Positions 42,048-45,731 of a DNA stretch of 49,853 bases are shown piece by piece. The stretch is from an uncultured Bacilli bacterium (GTDB lineage: Bacteria; Bacillota_I; Bacilli_A; RF39; UBA660). The stretch lies in NCBI GenBank assembly GCA_944358255.1, contig CALVQQ010000003.1, forward strand, positions 1 to 49,853, read 5' to 3'. Under the pieces are notes generated by a model that saw only the letters and a program-made list of their open reading frames with translations, was not told the origin of the DNA and made no database searches. The position numbers and the translations under genes were made by a program. Every line of letters starts with the position of its first letter. Within the stretch, counting starts at the first letter, position 1.

Positions 42048-42092
42048 ATGTGCTTAAAAATATATTTATATTTAAACTAATATCAAGATAAA

Positions 42093-42186
42093 TTTAAGTA
42101 ATTTTTAAGTAATTTGAAACATTCAACAATGAAAAAAGCCCATAAACACGGGCTTTGCGGTCATTTTGGTGGAGAATGTGGGACTT
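42093..42186. repeat. Left 94-bp direct repeat (att site, displaced copy of the tRNA-Ala 3' end plus its downstream flank)
   Basis: Base-for-base identical to 45581-45674 (checked by eye over all 94 nt). Contains the last 20 nt of tRNA-Ala (TGGTGGAGAATGTGGGACTT on the + strand) and a copy of its terminator hairpin. Confidence 0.88.
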
Positions 42187-42294
42187 CCCAAAATATGTTT
42201 TATTTCATTCTTTTACCTATTTTACCGTACTTCTTCTTACTTTATATTACTAATTTTTACTACATTTAACTTAAATTTAAGTAATTTTTAAGTA

Positions 42295-43212
42295 ATGAAA
42301 AACAACGAAAATAAACATATTGTTTGTCGCACTATCCAGTGCGACAACAATTTACTTGATAGTAAGCACATAACTCCGACAAATAAAAAGCTTTACAATA
42401 TAAAATTAGTAGAATGTGGCGATTATATACAAATATATTTTTATAATAGTAAAAAACTTAAAAGTGTAAAAGAAAATGATGAATTTAACTTAATCAAAAA
42501 AAATATTAGTAATAATTGTGAAAATAATGATAATAATAAAATCTTTTTAAACGATGAAAACAATTCAATAGATAAGAACATTGAAATGCGAAGTATTATA
42601 AGAAGTAAATTACAATGTCAAAGAATTGCTAAAACAAACATGAAAGAGTGGAAATCATTTATAACATTAACATTTGGCGATAATATTACTAACGTAAAAC
42701 TTGCAAATAAACAATTTCAATATTATAGAGATAAAGTTAAACGAGTAAAAAAAGATTTTAAATATTTATGCATCCCTGAATTTCAAAAACGTGGAGCAGT
42801 TCATTACCATTTATTAACTAATATTCCTTGTAATAGTAATTTAATACCAAAAAGAATTTTAAAAAATTTATATAATCCCATAAATAATACATGGAAAAAA
42901 TTAAACTATTATGATTTAAAATACTGGAACAATGGATTTTCAAGCGCCGAGATTATTACTGGAGAAGTAAAAAAAATTATAGGTTATATTGCAAAATACA
43001 TGACCAAAAATATTGATAATCGCCTATTTAATCATCATAGATATTTTTATAGTCAAAATTTACAAAAACCAAAGGAAAGTTTTATAAATATAGATAAAAA
43101 AATTGAAAAAGAATATTTAACAAAAAAACTTAAAAATAAAACTATTATATATGAAAATGACTATTTAAACCCACTCACAAATGAAATTATAAATTTTCAA
43201 GAATTAATATAA
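42295..43212 (+). CDS. rep: HUH-superfamily rolling-circle replication initiator (Rep), two-tyrosine type
   Basis: 305 aa. Motif I FITLTF (res 122-127), motif II HUH = AVHYHLL (res 168-174), motif III GYIAKYMTK (res 230-238; compare phiX174 gpA YVAKYVNK). No Shine-Dalgarno sequence. The ATG is embedded in the TTAAGTAAT repeat. Confidence 0.78.
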   Translation: MKNNENKHIVCRTIQCDNNLLDSKHITPTNKKLYNIKLVECGDYIQIYFYNSKKLKSVKENDEFNLIKKNISNNCENNDNNKIFLNDENNSIDKNIEMRSIIRSKLQCQRIAKTNMKEWKSFITLTFGDNITNVKLANKQFQYYRDKVKRVKKDFKYLCIPEFQKRGAVHYHLLTNIPCNSNLIPKRILKNLYNPINNTWKKLNYYDLKYWNNGFSSAEIITGEVKKIIGYIAKYMTKNIDNRLFNHHRYFYSQNLQKPKESFINIDKKIEKEYLTKKLKNKTIIYENDYLNPLTNEIINFQELI

Positions 43213-43671
43213 CTATTTTTCATCATTTCTAAAAAGATAATAAATGAAAGCTAAATTAATAATTCCTCTATCATATAAACCTAAACATTTATAGAAAATT
43301 GAAAAAGCTTCTAATTCCCCTATTTTATTTTGTTTGTAATCATCTACAACTTTATTTAAATCTATTTCATTTTTAGAATTACAATATCTTTTATATAATT
43401 TTTCACTTGAACCTAAAAATTCAAAATCTTGCAAATTATTAAGTAATTCAACATCAAAACCTTCATAATTACAAGCTTTTAATAATTTTACAATTGATAT
43501 ATCAAGAGTTTCACTAAGATTAAATAGTATAAATAGATTAGGTTTTTGCACTTCTCCACTCTCTATTCTTGATATAAGAGAATTGTCTACATTTATTTTT
43601 TTTGCAAGTTCTCTTTGTGAAATATTTAATTTATTTCTTTTTTCTTTTATTAAATCGCTTAAATTATTCAT
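43213..43671 (-). CDS. XRE-family HTH repressor (cI-like) with an uncharacterised C-terminal domain
   Basis: 152 aa. N-terminal LNISQRELAKKINVDNSLISRIESGEV helix-turn-helix. Divergent from the xis-like gene. Its stop codon abuts the rep stop codon with 0 nt between them. Confidence 0.85.
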   Translation of the reverse strand: MNNLSDLIKEKRNKLNISQRELAKKINVDNSLISRIESGEVQKPNLFILFNLSETLDISIVKLLKACNYEGFDVELLNNLQDFEFLGSSEKLYKRYCNSKNEIDLNKVVDDYKQNKIGELEAFSIFYKCLGLYDRGIINLAFIYYLFRNDEK

Positions 43672-43725: not shown

Positions 43726-43741
43726 ACTAATAATAAAAGTG

Positions 43742-43770
43742 TTGACACATTCAACAAACAATGATATATT
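43742..43770 (+). promoter_or_regulatory. Rightward promoter (xis-like/orf79/int) with operator-like repeats
   Basis: TTGACA - 17 nt - TATATT. TTCAACAA (43750-43757) and its inverse TTGTTGAA (43775-43782) bracket the -10. A third ATTCAACA lies at 43785-43792. Confidence 0.55.
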
Positions 43771-43810
43771 TATCTTGTTGAAGAATTCAACAGAAAGGAG
43801 AAGTAATTAT

Positions 43811-44074
43811 ATGAATTATCAAGAATTATTTAATTTAATATCAAAGCCATGGGCAAGCGTAAAAGACATAAAAAAAATTGCTAATTGTGGTAGAGATAGA
43901 GCATCTAAAATTAGAGATACTATTATTCTAGATATTATTAATAATGGCAAAAACATACCTATTGCACGAGAAAAGATTGTACCTATGGAAAATGTTATAA
44001 GCTATTTAAATCTAAATTTAGATTATATTTTTACAATGGCTCAAAAAGAAAAGCTAATACAAGTTTGTAAATAG
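43811..44074 (+). CDS. Small DNA-binding protein, excisionase/DUF3173-like
   Basis: 87 aa from ATG 43811 (RBS AAAGGAG, 9-nt spacing). The layout ...DIKKIANCGRDRASKIRDTI...KIVPMENVISYL resembles the small Xis-type proteins found upstream of tyrosine integrases in Firmicute integrative elements. The assignment is by resemblance only. Confidence 0.45.
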   Translation: MNYQELFNLISKPWASVKDIKKIANCGRDRASKIRDTIILDIINNGKNIPIAREKIVPMENVISYLNLNLDYIFTMAQKEKLIQVCK

Positions 44075-44220
44075 GCAATTGGAATATCGCACCCGCTACA
44101 TAAGTATGCGGGGAGAATATGCCGAGAAAACTATTTACAAACAATACACAATTATAATGGTATTGCAAAAATGAAATTAGAATAATTCATTTTTGTTATA
44201 TATCATGGAAAGGACACGTT

Positions 44221-44460
44221 ATGAAAAATACAAACAATATACAAGTCACAAATCTAAATATTGAAGAAATTAATCTTTATGTAATAAATGAATTATTGAA
44301 TAGCATATCTTATTTAGAAATTCCACTAAACTTTAAAAATACATTAGATAATCTTATTTTTGACATAGAAAATTATCTTTTTCCACTTCCTAATTCATTA
44401 AGACAAAAAGATGCCTATAATCAAAAATGGACTGTTACAACATTTTTTTCTAACAAATAA
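44221..44460 (+). CDS. Hypothetical protein (orf79), the only candidate cargo of the element
   Basis: 79 aa. RBS GGAAAGGA 7 nt upstream. Its stop lies 7 nt before the int ATG. No recognisable motif. Confidence 0.4.
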   Translation: MKNTNNIQVTNLNIEEINLYVINELLNSISYLEIPLNFKNTLDNLIFDIENYLFPLPNSLRQKDAYNQKWTVTTFFSNK

Positions 44461-44467
44461 TAGGTGT

Positions 44468-45553
44468 ATGGCTGTATATAAAAACAAAAATACGTGGTTT
44501 TTCCGTACTTATGTTACTGATAATTTAGGACATAGAAAACAAATATATAAAAGCGGTTTTGCATCAAAATCTATTGCAAAATTGGAAGAACAGCAATATA
44601 TTTTACAATATAAAAAAATAGTTGGAGAAAATATCTTATTTAGTGATTTATACGAACAATATAAAACATTTAAAAGTCAAACTATTAAACCGCAGTCTTT
44701 TATAACTATTTGTAATAAAATTGAAAATCATATTTTGCCCTATTTTAAAGATTATAAAATAAAAGAAATAAATCATATAGTATATATAAATTGGAAAAAA
44801 TACATTTTACAAAAAAAATATTCTTTTAAATATATGTCTAGTTTACATATTTGTATGGTTAACATCTTGAATTATGCTATGCAATATTTTGGATTAGAAA
44901 ATAATGTGGCAAGTAAAACTGGAAATTTTATTAATATAAATGCTATAAAAAAATATGACTATTGGACTTTTGAAGAATTTTACACATTTATAAATAAAGT
45001 TAATGAAATAGAATATAAAGTTTTATTTCGTGTACTATTTTTTACTGGCATGAGATTAGGAGAATGTTTAGCACTTAATTGGGAAGATATCAAAAGCGAT
45101 TATATAAGTATTAATAAAACTATCGCACAAAAAGTAAGAACTAATGGAAACTATATAGTTACTACACCAAAATCACTATCTTCAAATAGAGTTATCAAAT
45201 TAGACAAAGAAACAATTTATAATTTAAATTTATTAAAAAGATTTTATAGTCAATTTATAGGCTTTAATAATAACTGGTATATCTTTGGTGGTATTAAGCC
45301 ACTAGCAACAACAACTATTTCAAGAAAAAAAAATTACTATTGTGATTTAGCAAAAGTAAAAAGAATAAAAATACACGAATTTAGACATAGTCATGCAAGT
45401 TTATTAATATCAAAAGGAATACCAATTACCATGATAAGCGCTAGATTAGGACATAGAGATGTATCAATGACATTAAAAGTTTATTCTCATTTAATACCAC
45501 ATGATGAAGAAAAAATTATCAACTTAATTAATCAAGTTGAAGAAAGGAATTAA
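44468..45553 (+). CDS. int: Tyrosine recombinase / phage-type integrase
   Basis: 361 aa from ATG 44468 (RBS AGGTG). Catalytic residues FTGMRLGE (R), HEFRHSHAS (H-x-x-R-H), GHRDVSMTLKVYSHL (H...Y). N-terminal AVYKNKNTWFFRTY is an arm-binding-type domain. Confidence 0.92.
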   Translation: MAVYKNKNTWFFRTYVTDNLGHRKQIYKSGFASKSIAKLEEQQYILQYKKIVGENILFSDLYEQYKTFKSQTIKPQSFITICNKIENHILPYFKDYKIKEINHIVYINWKKYILQKKYSFKYMSSLHICMVNILNYAMQYFGLENNVASKTGNFININAIKKYDYWTFEEFYTFINKVNEIEYKVLFRVLFFTGMRLGECLALNWEDIKSDYISINKTIAQKVRTNGNYIVTTPKSLSSNRVIKLDKETIYNLNLLKRFYSQFIGFNNNWYIFGGIKPLATTTISRKKNYYCDLAKVKRIKIHEFRHSHASLLISKGIPITMISARLGHRDVSMTLKVYSHLIPHDEEKIINLINQVEERN

Positions 45554-45560
45554 TACTACT

Positions 45561-45603
45561 TTAAGTAATTTTAAGTAATTTTTAAGTAATTTTTAAGTAA
45601 TTT
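45561..45603 (+). repeat. Four tandem copies of TTAAGTAATT(T), 10-11-bp period, at the int-proximal end of the element
   Basis: Units at 45561-70, 45571-81, 45582-92 and 45593-603. Two more at 42094-42115 (left repeat) and two at 42277-42296 (overlapping the rep ATG). All eight are in the same orientation. Confidence 0.85.
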
Positions 45604-45674
45604 GAAACATTCAACAATGAAAAAAGCCCATAAACACGGGCTTTGCGGTCATTTTGGTGGAGAATGTGGGACTT
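45581..45674. repeat. Right 94-bp direct repeat (att site overlapping the tRNA-Ala 3' end)
   Basis: Identical to 42093-42186. Positions 45655-45674 are the 3' 20 nt of the intact tRNA-Ala. Confidence 0.88.
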
Positions 45675-45731
45675 GAACCCGCGACCCCCTGCGTGCAAGG
45701 CAGGTGCTCTAGCCAACTGAGCTAATTCCCC
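45655..45731 (-). tRNA. tRNA-Ala (anticodon TGC), CCA encoded
   Basis: Minus strand GGGGAAT-TA-GCTC-AGTTGGCTA-GAGC-A-CCTGC-CTTGCAC-GCAGG-GGGTC-GCGGG-TTCAAGT-CCCAC-ATTCTCC-A-CCA. It has the G3:U70 Ala identity pair. A terminator hairpin (AAAGCCC-GTGTTTAT-GGGCTTT + T-run) lies downstream. Confidence 0.92.

Follow-up and report, generated by a model that had tools for sequence, protein, structure and literature searches.

The region 42319–42372, at the beginning of the rep gene, is probably the cognate nick site and double-strand origin of the two-tyrosine HUH Rep that this gene encodes, with a cut between G42358 and A42359; we put the probability of this reading at about 0.8. Because the hairpin and the adjacent motif are conserved as DNA and not as protein, the region is very probably the place where Rep nicks. 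The original prediction of a candidate double-strand origin is supported by this DNA-level conservation, and we infer the cleavage itself and the bond that is cut.

The integrated element

The site is located in an element of 3,488 bp, which is integrated at the 3' end of a tRNA-Ala gene in the analysed window (the whole stretch of 49,853 nucleotides). It carries genes for Rep, an XRE regulator and a tyrosine integrase as well as two small ORFs, arranged as follows.

42069–42186, no strand: att, left copy of a 118-nt direct repeat, element boundary
42295–43212, plus strand: rep, HUH rolling-circle initiator, 305 aa, with motifs I (FITLTF), II (HYH) and III (YIAKY, two tyrosines)
43213–43671, minus strand: XRE/Cro-C1-type HTH regulator (PF01381, 1.7e-15; PHROG transcriptional repressor families)
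43742–43770: best promoter-like site, TTGACA-17-TATATT
43811–44074 and 44221–44460, plus strand: two small ORFs, between the best promoter-like site and int
44471–45553, plus strand: tyrosine integrase with arm-type DNA-binding N-terminal domain (PF00589, PF14659, PF14657; phrog_1 integrase, 6.6e-61)
45557–45674, no strand: att, right copy of the 118-nt direct repeat, overlapping the tRNA-Ala(tgc) 3' end
45655–45731, minus strand: tRNA-Ala(tgc), its 3' end within the right att

The two att copies are 92% identical at a spacing of 3,488, and the final 20 nt of the left copy duplicate the 3' end of tRNA-Ala. Run X3 contains an element-free allele with the junction 42092→45581, and the element is polymorphic in chicken-gut metagenomes. 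The integrase, the att repeats at a conserved target (tRNA-Ala) and the element-free allele together mark the element as mobile. In run X1 the depth of the element (13.9) equals that of its flanks (12–13.7; the runs are assembled contigs), thus that sample gives no hint of an amplified episome.

The XRE regulator is likely the repressor of the element. Neither small ORF has a match in Pfam, PHROG or NCBIfam; one of them could, as a guess from position, be an excisionase. Rfam gives no match at the origin site, and in the region it finds just the tRNA and one sub-threshold match, to a Na+ riboswitch at 43397–43453, which was taken as chance.

Rep is a two-tyrosine HUH protein

Rep matches PF23343 (REP_ORF2-G2P) over residues 121–239 with 67.6 bits, well above the gathering cut-off of 27.8, and phrog_3419, "rolling circle DNA replication initiation", at 1.3e-27. 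The motifs originally ascribed to it, FITLTF, HYH and Y-x-x-K-Y (YIAKY), are present and invariant in homologues; in 36 of these, the invariant residues are F122/T124/L125/T126, H170/H172 and Y231/K234/Y235. Judged from these residues, Rep carries the full catalytic set of an HUH initiator, encoded in cis. A protein search finds 1,405 homologues, mostly in gut metagenomes, and their carriers are integrating Rep+integrase elements of ~3 kb in uncultured gut Bacilli and "Tenericutes" MAGs.

Other family assignments are weak or lacking. Rep has no match to Rep_1 (PF01446) at E <= 0.01, to Rep_trans (PF02486) in Pfam, or to any family in NCBIfam. Its catalytic half matches Pfam Phage_GPA weakly (E = 3e-5, 23.6 bits, below the gathering threshold of 31.4), and RepSA (PF20199) reaches 29.6 bits against a threshold of 34. 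A sequence search of solved structures returns no relevant relative, and Foldseek with the Rep model gives no significant match. The weak top Foldseek matches are mostly HUH nucleases (Helitron, SIRV1 ORF119, and geminivirus, circovirus and AAV Rep), which is compatible with an HUH fold of the model. Literature searches for PF23343, REP_ORF2-G2P and phrog_3419 found nothing.

In the protein alignment, residues L21, D22 and S23 never vary, whereas the peptide before them is hypervariable and cannot be aligned among homologues. In the Rep model, residues 1–22 and 24–29, which flank this tripeptide, have pLDDT < 50. The rep start codon at 42295 is not certain, because no obvious Shine-Dalgarno sequence precedes it.

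Hairpins and motif at the site

The candidate origin is composed of a G+C-rich hairpin, a small second hairpin directly behind it, and a conserved core that overlaps the beginning of the Rep reading frame.

42319–42351, plus strand: hairpin I, 10-bp core extended by ATTGT/ACAAT flanks to a 14-bp stem (ssDNA fold)
42352–42365, plus strand: mini-hairpin II, TTACT-TGAT-AGTAA (ssDNA fold), directly after hairpin I and carrying ACTTGATA
42353–42372, plus strand: conserved 20-nt DNA core, TACTTGATAGTA-AG-C-A-CATA, overlapping Rep codons 20–26 (L-L-D-S-K-H-I)

The arms TTGTCGCAC (42324–42332) and GTGCGACAA (42339–42347) and the motif ACTTGATA (42354–42361) are located exactly where they had been placed. 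The proposed 9-bp stem with a 6-nt loop is indeed a perfect repeat, and its size is corrected here: the core joins TTGTCGCACT (42324–42333) with AGTGCGACAA (42338–42347) in 10 perfect pairs around the 4-nt loop ATCC. The hairpin fold at the site has an MFE of −14.7 kcal/mol (z = −5.7), and none of 200 shuffles is as good. The chance of such a stem had been estimated at about 1%. This estimate holds only with the G+C content counted, because bare stems are common: dinucleotide shuffles of the element contain a perfect stem of at least 9 bp in 49% of cases and of at least 10 bp in 20%, whereas a stem of at least 9 bp with at least four G:C pairs occurs in 0 of 300.

The 49.8-kb window contains the 12-mer TACTTGATAGTA a single time, at 42353. 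Likewise, a covariance model of the site has a single hit in the window, at 42317–42375 (33.2 bits, E = 2.5e-6). Bare CTTGATA is weak evidence for an origin: the window contains 19 copies against 10 expected, five of them in or at the element. The four other copies there (42081 minus, 43500 minus, 43568 plus and 43817 minus) are treated as chance because they lack the extended motif. The regions 42187–42294 and 44075–44220, which had been named as alternative places for nicking, contain neither a covariance-model hit nor CTTGATA.

Conservation in related loci

Conservation was analysed in 55 related loci, whose Rep proteins are 34–58% identical to the one here and which were retrieved by peptide patterns in Rep motifs II and III, far from the site. 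The motif is kept in all 55, once per rep gene, on the rep strand and at an equivalent place ~400–600 nt upstream of the HUH motif. The DNA string common to these loci is TACTTGATAGTA..C.CATA, and the family consensus of the core reads TACTTGATAGTA[AG][GT]C[TA]CATA. The 12-mer is exact in 51 loci; three carry a 3-nt AAT insertion, which falls after CTTGAT, and one has two synonymous changes. L048 tolerates CTCGATAGC.

The codons under the core are fixed beyond the residues that they encode. For Leu21, 48 of 49 loci use CTT, a codon with 16% usage in the remainder of these genes, and Ser23 is AGT in 48/49 (39% elsewhere). The next Leu is CTC in 41/41 although this codon makes up 2.4% of usage elsewhere in the same genes, and where His stands in its place it is CAC in 6/6 (17% elsewhere). 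In addition, Ile is ATA in 46 of the 49 loci, and the codon before Leu21, whether for L or I, always ends in TA. This pattern argues strongly for conservation that acts on the DNA, beyond what the protein requires.

The upstream hairpin behaves differently from the motif. Its 5' arms comprise 46 distinct sequences in 49 loci, with the stem at an equivalent position. The mean folding energy is −11.2 kcal/mol in origin windows and −3.9 in other 80-nt windows taken from these genes (Mann-Whitney p = 1.6e-23). Of the origin windows, 45% contain a strong perfect stem, versus 3.7% of control windows. When 61 distinct sequences are aligned with the covariance model, the share of paired cells is 80.6%, compared with 52% in shuffles and 40–47% in slid controls, and doubly changed cells number 208 versus 64; both counts come from an alignment fitted to the structure and are biased toward pairing. 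By these comparisons it is the pairing of the upstream stem, not its sequence, that is conserved. The check that had been proposed, whether arms and CTTGATA are conserved at synonymous positions, comes out strongly positive, with the motif in 55/55 loci, third positions fixed, rare codons retained and the stem kept.

The geometry of the site is not uniform. The gap between stem and motif is 4–15 nt in most loci, whereas in L009, L015, L022 and L023 the stem encloses the motif, which lies in the loop. In L038 a big hairpin is located upstream of the rep ATG, and in some loci a simple scan found no strong stem close to the motif. With the stem adjacent to the motif or enclosing it, the predicted secondary structure has the potential to expose a nick site.

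More distant relatives

Among more distant homologues the site moves out of the reading frame. In two Erysipelotrichaceae loci (L054 and L057), TTACTTGATA occupies the loop of a non-coding hairpin that immediately precedes the rep ATG, and in L056 the same motif lies within a perfect 10-bp stem. The small plasmids pGTG5 (Geobacillus, 1,540 bp) and pCCIFB3C5_2 (Clostridium cadaveris, 1,618 bp) encode Reps that are 28–29% identical over 73–87% of the query. Both have a stem and CTTGATTATAG in non-coding DNA ~45–70 nt upstream of rep. Their motif has three extra bases (TAT) after CTTGAT, and the integrase, present in the element here, is absent from both. We know of no mapping of the origins of these two plasmids, and a literature search on pGTG5 and pKH9 found nothing on origin mapping.

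The pKH9 Rep is 30% identical to the Rep here (E = 8e-11), and we take it to be a PHA00330-type protein. No comparable motif was found near rep in pKH9 and in a Vagococcus plasmid; according to one paper, pKH9 is able to replicate without its own rep gene. In the homologues from Patescibacteria and proteobacteria (L058–L080), the ACTTGATA pattern was not found at the corresponding place, and these may use another nick sequence.

Comparison with known origins

A close parallel is phiX174. Both phiX174 and the element contain ACTTGATA, the phiX174 origin being annotated at A4306 (CAACTTG|ATATTAATAAC) inside gene A. In both, the origin is located inside the initiator's own ORF and the initiator combines HUH with two tyrosines in Y-x-x-K-Y. 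Around the nick, 15 of the first 22 aligned positions match, by our count. The two differ in initiator family (microvirus A family versus PF23343) and in the position of the origin, which is mid-gene in phiX174 and within codons 9–26 here. Moreover, a G+C-rich hairpin precedes the origin here, while the phiX174 origin is not known to need one. Unlike phiX174, the element has a tyrosine integrase and integrates; no capsid, scaffold or lysis genes of microvirus type were found in it (ORFs, Pfam, PHROG).

In P2, the ori nick is likewise annotated inside the initiator gene, gene A. P2 is a 33-kb tailed phage, unlike the 3.5-kb element, and the likeness consists of the ori location and the weak, sub-threshold Phage_GPA match to Rep. 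Rep is closer in logic to phiX174 and P2 than to pC194.

The core CTTGATA is contained in the pC194 origin fragment TTCTTTCTTATCTTGATAATAAGGG (PMC7072734), so the claimed occurrence of CTTG/ATA in phiX174 and pC194 agrees with the phiX174 record and with this fragment. Like the element, pC194/pUB110 are small Firmicute RCR replicons with this core. Their initiator is a Rep_1 protein with one tyrosine (in pC194 RepA, a single Tyr works together with Glu residues; PMC5703833), whereas the Rep here has two tyrosines in motif III and lacks PF01446. The suggested link to the pC194 family therefore stands for the CTTGATA core, which alone is in common, and fails for the Rep family, which is the two-tyrosine PF23343 and not Rep_1.

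Most RCR plasmids have the dso upstream of rep; in pT181 it is located within rep, where the nick becomes accessible through an extruded palindrome (PMC5703833). Both precedents that had been cited for an origin inside the initiator gene are thus found, in the phiX174 record and in this review. The pT181 initiator is a Rep_trans protein with an unrelated, non-HUH fold and its nick sequence differs, leaving the origin-inside-rep layout in common; membership of this family was rejected on the missing PF02486 match.

A further comparison concerns streptococcal IMEs of the PHA00330 class and actinomycete elements of pSAM2 type (RepSA). These combine a tyrosine integrase with an RCR-type initiator, as here, and their target is the 3' end of a tRNA gene or of another conserved gene. 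The element is far smaller, with 3.5 kb and no coupling protein or transfer gene, and the hosts of the element and its relatives are uncultured gut Bacilli and "Tenericutes" MAGs, unlike those of the streptococcal and actinomycete systems. The passages of PMC5357655 and PMC5704250 on these elements mention no mapped nick site.

Other readings of the site

The site could mainly be an oriT, the element being an IME and Rep a non-canonical relaxase that hands a single strand to a helper, with replication just associated with transfer; we consider this improbable. It would fit the architecture of streptococcal IMEs, in which an integrase and an RCR-type initiator are found at a tRNA gene and 118 of 144 carry a putative relaxase akin to RCR initiators, the PHA00330 class among them, and reviews call the distinction between Rep and relaxase blurred (PMC5357655, PMC5704250). 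The PHA00330 class may include the pKH9 Rep, a distant homologue of the protein here, since PMC5357655, as we read it, cites the pKH9 paper among its domain sources. The equal depth of element and flanks in X1 points the same way. However, no TcpA coupling protein or other transfer gene is present among the element ORFs (ORF list, Pfam), the distant Rep homologues are the main gene on 1.5-kb plasmids, where they presumably act as replication initiators, and PHROG labels the family as replication initiator. Moreover, Rep would nick at this site by the same chemistry in both cases, and this reading therefore concerns the use of the site and not its identity.

Very unlikely is a role at the RNA level, in which a structure in the leader or early coding part of the rep mRNA would act by attenuation, translation occlusion or as an antisense target, for copy control as in pT181/pMV158. 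The stem does lie where the rep transcript begins, at its 5' end, the hairpin 42324–42347 followed by CAATTTACTT also fits the crude terminator pattern of a terminator scan, and conservation of structure alone does not separate RNA from single-stranded DNA (see also PMC5737381). An RNA hairpin would, however, leave unexplained the 12–20 nt of invariant sequence that match a mapped DNA nick site. Most homologues lack a T-run behind the stem, and Rfam has no matching family. In addition, the position relative to the start codon varies (in the ORF, upstream of the ATG, or 45–70 nt upstream) while the distance to the motif is kept.

It is scarcely credible that the site has no function as nucleic acid, with LDS as a protein motif and the hairpin as a chance by-product of two Cys/Arg/Asp codons: the invariance of L21, D22 and S23 and the frequency of stems of at least 9 bp in element shuffles (49%) speak for it, whereas the fixed synonymous positions and rare codons and the persistence of the motif outside the ORF in distant relatives contradict it, disorder is predicted for the N-terminal region around LDS, stems of different sequence recur at the same place, and, for the variant of an integrase recombination site, the att repeats lie elsewhere (42069–42186 and 45557–45674).

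A probable DNA element overprinted on coding sequence

HUH nick sites built around CTTG|ATA are already well known, as are origins inside the initiator gene. The double-strand origin proposed here adds a precise candidate for a large uncharacterised Rep family (1,405 homologues). To our knowledge, no genetic tools exist for the uncultured Bacilli and "Tenericutes" hosts; Rep together with its ~55-nt origin would form the minimum kit for a shuttle or integrative vector.

The site would also offer a clear case from nature in which a coding sequence is overprinted with a DNA cis-element, with seven codons fixed, including the very rare CTC. The overlapped codons (NTA-CTT-GAT-AGT-ANN-CNC-ATA) would be frozen because the site must stay constant. 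The invariant LDS is thus probably no protein motif, rather a product of the origin, and selection for a stem of arbitrary sequence would give rise to the hypervariable N-terminal peptide. This calls for caution in reading conservation from Rep alignments.

Proposed mechanism

The integrase would excise the element as a circle. In the supercoiled circle, the G+C-rich hairpin I would extrude, or aid the melting of the adjacent AT-rich DNA, so that TACTTGATAGTA is displayed on a short TTACT/AGTAA stem capped by the loop TGAT. Rep would then cut the rep-sense strand, most likely at G42358/A42359 as in phiX174 CTTG|ATA; this bond, which we infer by analogy, is located in the 4-nt loop of mini-hairpin II. 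One tyrosine of the invariant Y231-x-x-K-Y235 pair would link to the 5' phosphate, and the 3'-OH would prime leading-strand synthesis rightwards through rep. After one round, the second tyrosine would cut the regenerated site and the displaced strand would be sealed, as with phiX174 gpA. Given a helper conjugative element, the same nick may also act as an oriT. The peptide upstream of the site would be free to vary, provided that the DNA still forms a stem.

Whether the placement within the first 26 codons is itself functional, tying origin firing to rep expression, to transcription of rep after excision and to an oriT role, is a more speculative matter, and we regard it as rather unlikely. 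Transcription or translation through the hairpin may open the site, and a cis-acting Rep may nick its own encoding molecule; phiX174 gpA acts in cis on the molecule that encodes it. When integrated, rep has no strong promoter of its own; its transcription may have to await excision and then come from the int operon, reading through attP. If this placement is functional, the ~3-kb Int+Rep elements of uncultured gut Bacilli would be the smallest known self-replicating, integrating and mobilizable elements.

Circular or multimeric forms exist among the relatives: one locus (L082) is a circular unitig in which int→rep is contiguous, and in L009 a 2,790-bp unit is repeated perfectly in tandem.

The integrated element and its initiator protein

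The integrated element is bounded by two 118-nt direct repeats (att repeats), with five genes between them.

Features of the integrated element
42069-42186 and 45557-45674: direct repeats (att), 118 nt, 92% identical, 3,488 bp apart
42295-43212, + strand: rep
43213-43671, strand opposite to rep: XRE-type HTH gene
43811-44074 and 44221-44460: two small ORFs without assignment
44471-45553: tyrosine integrase gene (int), product with arm-binding domain
45655-45731, - strand: tRNA-Ala(tgc), 3′ end overlapped by the right 118-nt repeat

Depth and joint contigs show that the element is polymorphic across chicken-gut metagenomes. In run X3, a contig joining 42092 to 45581 represents the empty site at depth 31, the element's own contigs standing at about 5; the element is therefore mobile. 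The empty site holds one 118-nt repeat copy, kept whole and including its TTAAGTAAT copies, and such retention of the entire repeat is unusual for an attB. In run X1, element depth equals that of the flanks (13.9 vs 12-13.7), and this sample contains one integrated copy and no amplified episome.

Judged from its sequence, Rep is an HUH rolling-circle initiator. It matches PF23343 REP_ORF2-G2P (67.6 bits, cut-off 27.8) and phrog_3419 'rolling circle DNA replication initiation' (1.3e-27), with sub-threshold matches to RepSA (pSAM2) and Phage_GPA (P2). The motifs that the original prediction had recognized in Rep (FLTLT-like, HUH and Y-x-x-K-Y) are invariant as FxTLT, HxH and Y-x-x-K-Y in the protein alignment of 36 homologues.

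The rep start at 42295 has no recognisable Shine-Dalgarno sequence or ribosome-binding site, and upstream of it lies just a weak promoter-like site (42221-42248, 9 of 12). On the excised circle, rep would follow the int operon across attP, and the tRNA terminator hairpin of the att repeat faces the other strand. Given this read-through layout, rep might, speculatively, be expressed mainly after circularisation.

A DNA motif conserved within the rep reading frame

A homologue search of proteins yielded 1,405 Rep homologues, many on 2.7-3.5 kb contigs. Genomes were scanned by peptide patterns of motifs II and III, so that retrieval was independent of the tested site, giving 80 loci, mostly from uncultured gut Bacilli or 'Tenericutes' MAGs. 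The motif, a CTTGATA-containing string, is present in all 55 close relatives (L001-L053, L055, L061; Rep match E ≤ 1e-33, tblastn identity 32-54%). Each rep gene has a single copy, in the same orientation as rep, 400-600 nt 5′ of the HUH codons. Its form is exactly TACTTGATAGTA in 51 loci, TACTTGATAATAGT in three, where a 3-nt insertion encodes L-D-N-S, and CTCGATAGC in one. The 12-mer TACTTGATAGTA occurs once in the window, and elsewhere in the 384 kb of loci only in second rep copies of two loci.

In the protein alignment, residues before 20 are unalignable, and L21-D22-S23 are invariant. Their codons, CTT-GAT-AGT, constitute the motif. The codons here are nearly fixed, and the preceding codon, for L or I, has a constant TA ending, which together define the conserved string TACTTGATAGTA[AG][GT]C[TA]CATA (window 42353-42372).

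Codons at the motif and their frequency elsewhere in the same genes (raw counts, which overstate significance because the loci share phylogeny)
Leu21: CTT 48/49; elsewhere 16%
Ser23: AGT 48/49; elsewhere 39%
Next Leu: CTC 41/41; elsewhere 2.4%
Alternative His: CAC 6/6; elsewhere 17%
Ile: ATA 46/49; elsewhere 45%

On this comparison, motif conservation is at the DNA level. Simple recent ancestry is countered by the spread of Rep identity (34-58%) and by the variation in flanking codons. In the AlphaFold model, residues 1-22 and 24-29, flanking LDS, have pLDDT < 50, which agrees with a tripeptide having no structural role.

Hairpins at the motif

The inverted-repeat arms and nick motif claimed in the original prediction were all located at the predicted positions by a base check of the window.

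Hairpins and motif at the start of rep
42324-42332: inverted-repeat arm TTGTCGCAC
42339-42347: inverted-repeat arm GTGCGACAA
42354-42361: nick-motif string ACTTGATA
42319-42351: hairpin I, 14 pairs (ssDNA fold)
42352-42365: mini-hairpin TTACT (42352-42356)-TGAT-AGTAA (42361-42365), directly adjoining hairpin I (ssDNA fold)

The stem, described as 9 bp and perfect, is one pair longer: the repeat finder gives TTGTCGCACT/AGTGCGACAA, 10 perfect pairs with a 4-nt loop, ATCC. As ssDNA, 42300-42385 adopts a fold with two directly adjacent hairpins (MFE -14.7 kcal/mol, z = -5.7), a value equalled by 0 of 200 shuffles. The estimated chance of about 1% for such a stem fails for the bare stem, since dinucleotide shuffles of the 3.4-kb element contain a perfect stem of at least 9 bp in 49% of cases and of at least 10 bp in 20%; its rarity holds when at least 4 G:C pairs are included (0/300 shuffles of the element). 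CTTGATA is found 19 times in the window (10 expected), five times in or at the element, and by itself this 7-mer is weak evidence. The case therefore cannot rest on the window sequence alone. The other four copies in or at the 3.6-kb element (42081-, 43500-, 43568+, 43817-; ~0.7 predicted from the window-wide shuffle rate) all lack the extended motif, and we put them down to chance or to an effect of AT-rich codons.

The homologues share no common sequence 5′ of the motif, yet nearly all possess a stem there. The 5′ arms are of 46 different kinds among 49 loci, and the stem typically ends 4-15 nt 5′ of CTTG; in L009, L015, L022 and L023 it encloses the motif, with CTTGA in the loop. Of the origin windows, 45% contain a perfect stem with a score of at least 16, compared with 3.7% of 587 windows of equal size taken elsewhere in these rep genes. 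Moreover, origin windows have a lower mean MFE (-11.2 vs -3.9 kcal/mol, Mann-Whitney p = 1.6e-23) and a higher G+C content (36% vs 25%).

In eleven loci aligned in register, 10 of 15 pairs are changed on both sides, and the observed score was reached by 0/500 shuffles. A covariance model built from these loci and searched against 61 sources gave one match per rep gene, on the + strand throughout; its sole match in the window is 42317-42375 (33.2 bits, E = 2.5e-6). In the model-derived alignment of 61 distinct sequences, 80.6% of cells are paired (52% in shuffles, 40-47% with slid partners) and doubly changed cells number 208 vs 64, figures that lean to structure because the alignment was fitted to it. 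The fold-energy and perfect-stem controls are free of this bias. The homologues bear out the conservation expected for hairpin and CTTGATA, the motif being universal in close relatives, synonymous sites fixed and stems kept.

A second, weaker model match with the exact 12-mer (L040:7554-7603, 21.8 bits), 3.6 kb downstream of the first on the same MAG contig, may be a second element or a remnant.

The motif outside the reading frame

Among Erysipelotrichaceae relatives at a greater distance, TTACTTGATA is non-coding and located directly 5′ of the rep ATG. There it occupies the loop of stem GAAGCCTTAT/ATAAGGCTC in L054 and of GAGGTTTC/GAAACCTC in L057, while in L056 it is within a perfect 10-bp stem, TGTGGCTTAT/ATAAGCCACA. 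In L038 the ORF starts just 8 codons 5′ of the motif, with a 12-bp hairpin upstream of the ATG. In addition, the Reps of two tiny plasmids, pGTG5 (1,540 bp) and one of 1,618 bp from Clostridium cadaveris, are 28-29% identical to that of the window, and on both plasmids CTTGATTATAG comes after a stem, 45-70 nt ahead of rep. These placements argue that the site is a nucleic-acid signal holding its place relative to rep, translated or not; in the window clade the rep reading frame merely runs across it.

A proposed double-strand origin

The motif contains the phiX174 nick core: the phiX174 record annotates the viral-strand origin at A4306, CAACTTG|ATATTAATAAC, inside gene A, as the original prediction had stated. 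Taken with the two-tyrosine HUH Rep encoded in cis, this match is best explained if 42319-42372 serves Rep as its cognate nick site and the excised circle as its double-strand origin, a reading we judge probable (about 0.8). On supercoiled DNA, hairpin I would extrude or aid melting, and the mini-hairpin would display T-G|A-T as its loop. By analogy, one tyrosine would cut between G42358 and A42359, synthesis would then run rightwards, and the second tyrosine would resolve the regenerated site. Hairpin I may be a binding site, an extrusion aid or a termination signal.

Natural spacing variants occur at the site: L034, L044 and L053 have CTTGAT-AAT-AGT (L-D-N-S), and two distant 1.5-kb plasmids (L086:495, L087:985) have CTTGAT-TAT-AG. 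They suggest that three additional bases just past the presumed cut may be tolerated, or be specific to the cognate Rep.

Among relatives, L082 is a circular unitig of 3,233 nt whose ends overlap by 30 nt (k-1), and its gene order, int->rep, is permuted relative to the integrated form. L009 carries a perfect tandem of a Rep+Int unit (L009:984-5990, to the contig end; 100% identical, period 2,790 bp). They suggest circular or concatemeric forms, or an assembly artefact.

An oriT as the main use of the site is unlikely. Streptococcal IMEs encode an integrase together with 'relaxases' that resemble RCR initiators, the PHA00330 class among them, and reviews describe the distinction between Rep and relaxase as blurred (PMC5357655, PMC5704250); the element lacks a coupling protein and homologous Reps are found on 1.5-kb plasmids, which therefore favours replication as the primary role. 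The site may also serve both replication and transfer. Less probable still is a role in RNA, as an attenuator or a structure affecting translation: the stem fits a crude terminator pattern, but this reading leaves unexplained both the invariant 12-20-nt match to a mapped DNA nick site and the variable distance to the start codon, and the site has no Rfam match. Protein constraint alone with a chance hairpin is contradicted by the fixed synonymous and rare codons and by the non-coding motifs of the Erysipelotrichaceae relatives and two tiny plasmids, and an integrase site by the position of the att repeats elsewhere (42069-42186 and 45557-45674).

Relation to known systems

The proposed origin resembles those of phiX174 and P2, which have a two-tyrosine HUH initiator and an origin within the initiator gene; the ori nick of P2 is likewise annotated inside gene A. 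The precedents cited in the original prediction are sound, as phiX174 has its origin in gene A and the dso of pT181-family plasmids is located inside rep (PMC5703833). The CTTGATA heptamer is indeed also present in the pC194 origin fragment (PMC7072734). Membership of the pC194 family was rejected: Rep has no Rep_1 domain and a different catalytic motif, the CTTGATA core alone being common to both. As a whole, the element is like streptococcal IMEs, but much smaller and in uncultured gut Bacilli; pSAM2-type elements are more remotely alike. Our literature search found no paper on the family of the window Rep or its origin. This kind of site is already known, and the element adds a new member to it; its notable feature is the overprinting, with a replication signal fixing seven codons and mimicking a protein motif.

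Other repeats and structures in the element

The 9-mer TTAAGTAAT has 11 copies in the window (3.5 expected; 0/100 shuffles reach 11). Nine are in or beside the element (42094-42113, 42277-42296, 45561-45601, also 43439-43447) with a spacing of 10-11 nt, four right after int, two across the rep start codon and two within the left att repeat. After excision, the circle would carry copies on either side of the att core, which fits candidate arm-type sites for the integrase with its Arm-DNA-bind_4 domain; alternatively, they form a Rep 'bind' locus.

The 16-mer TTGA[AC]ACATTCAACAA has three copies (42114-42129, 43742-43757, 45602-45617), one per att repeat and the third across the -35 hexamer of the promoter-like site listed below.

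Best promoter-like site
43742-43770: TTGACA-17-TATATT

This third copy is part of an 18-nt inverted repeat (43740-43792) separating the divergent XRE gene from the small-ORF/int operon, probably the operator of the XRE repressor. Between the two small ORFs, 44070-44225 (+) folds as ssDNA at -19.5 kcal/mol (z -3.8), with one G+C-rich stem (~44091-44115) and one AT-rich stem (44166-44195), and is a candidate single-strand origin or terminator/regulatory structure.
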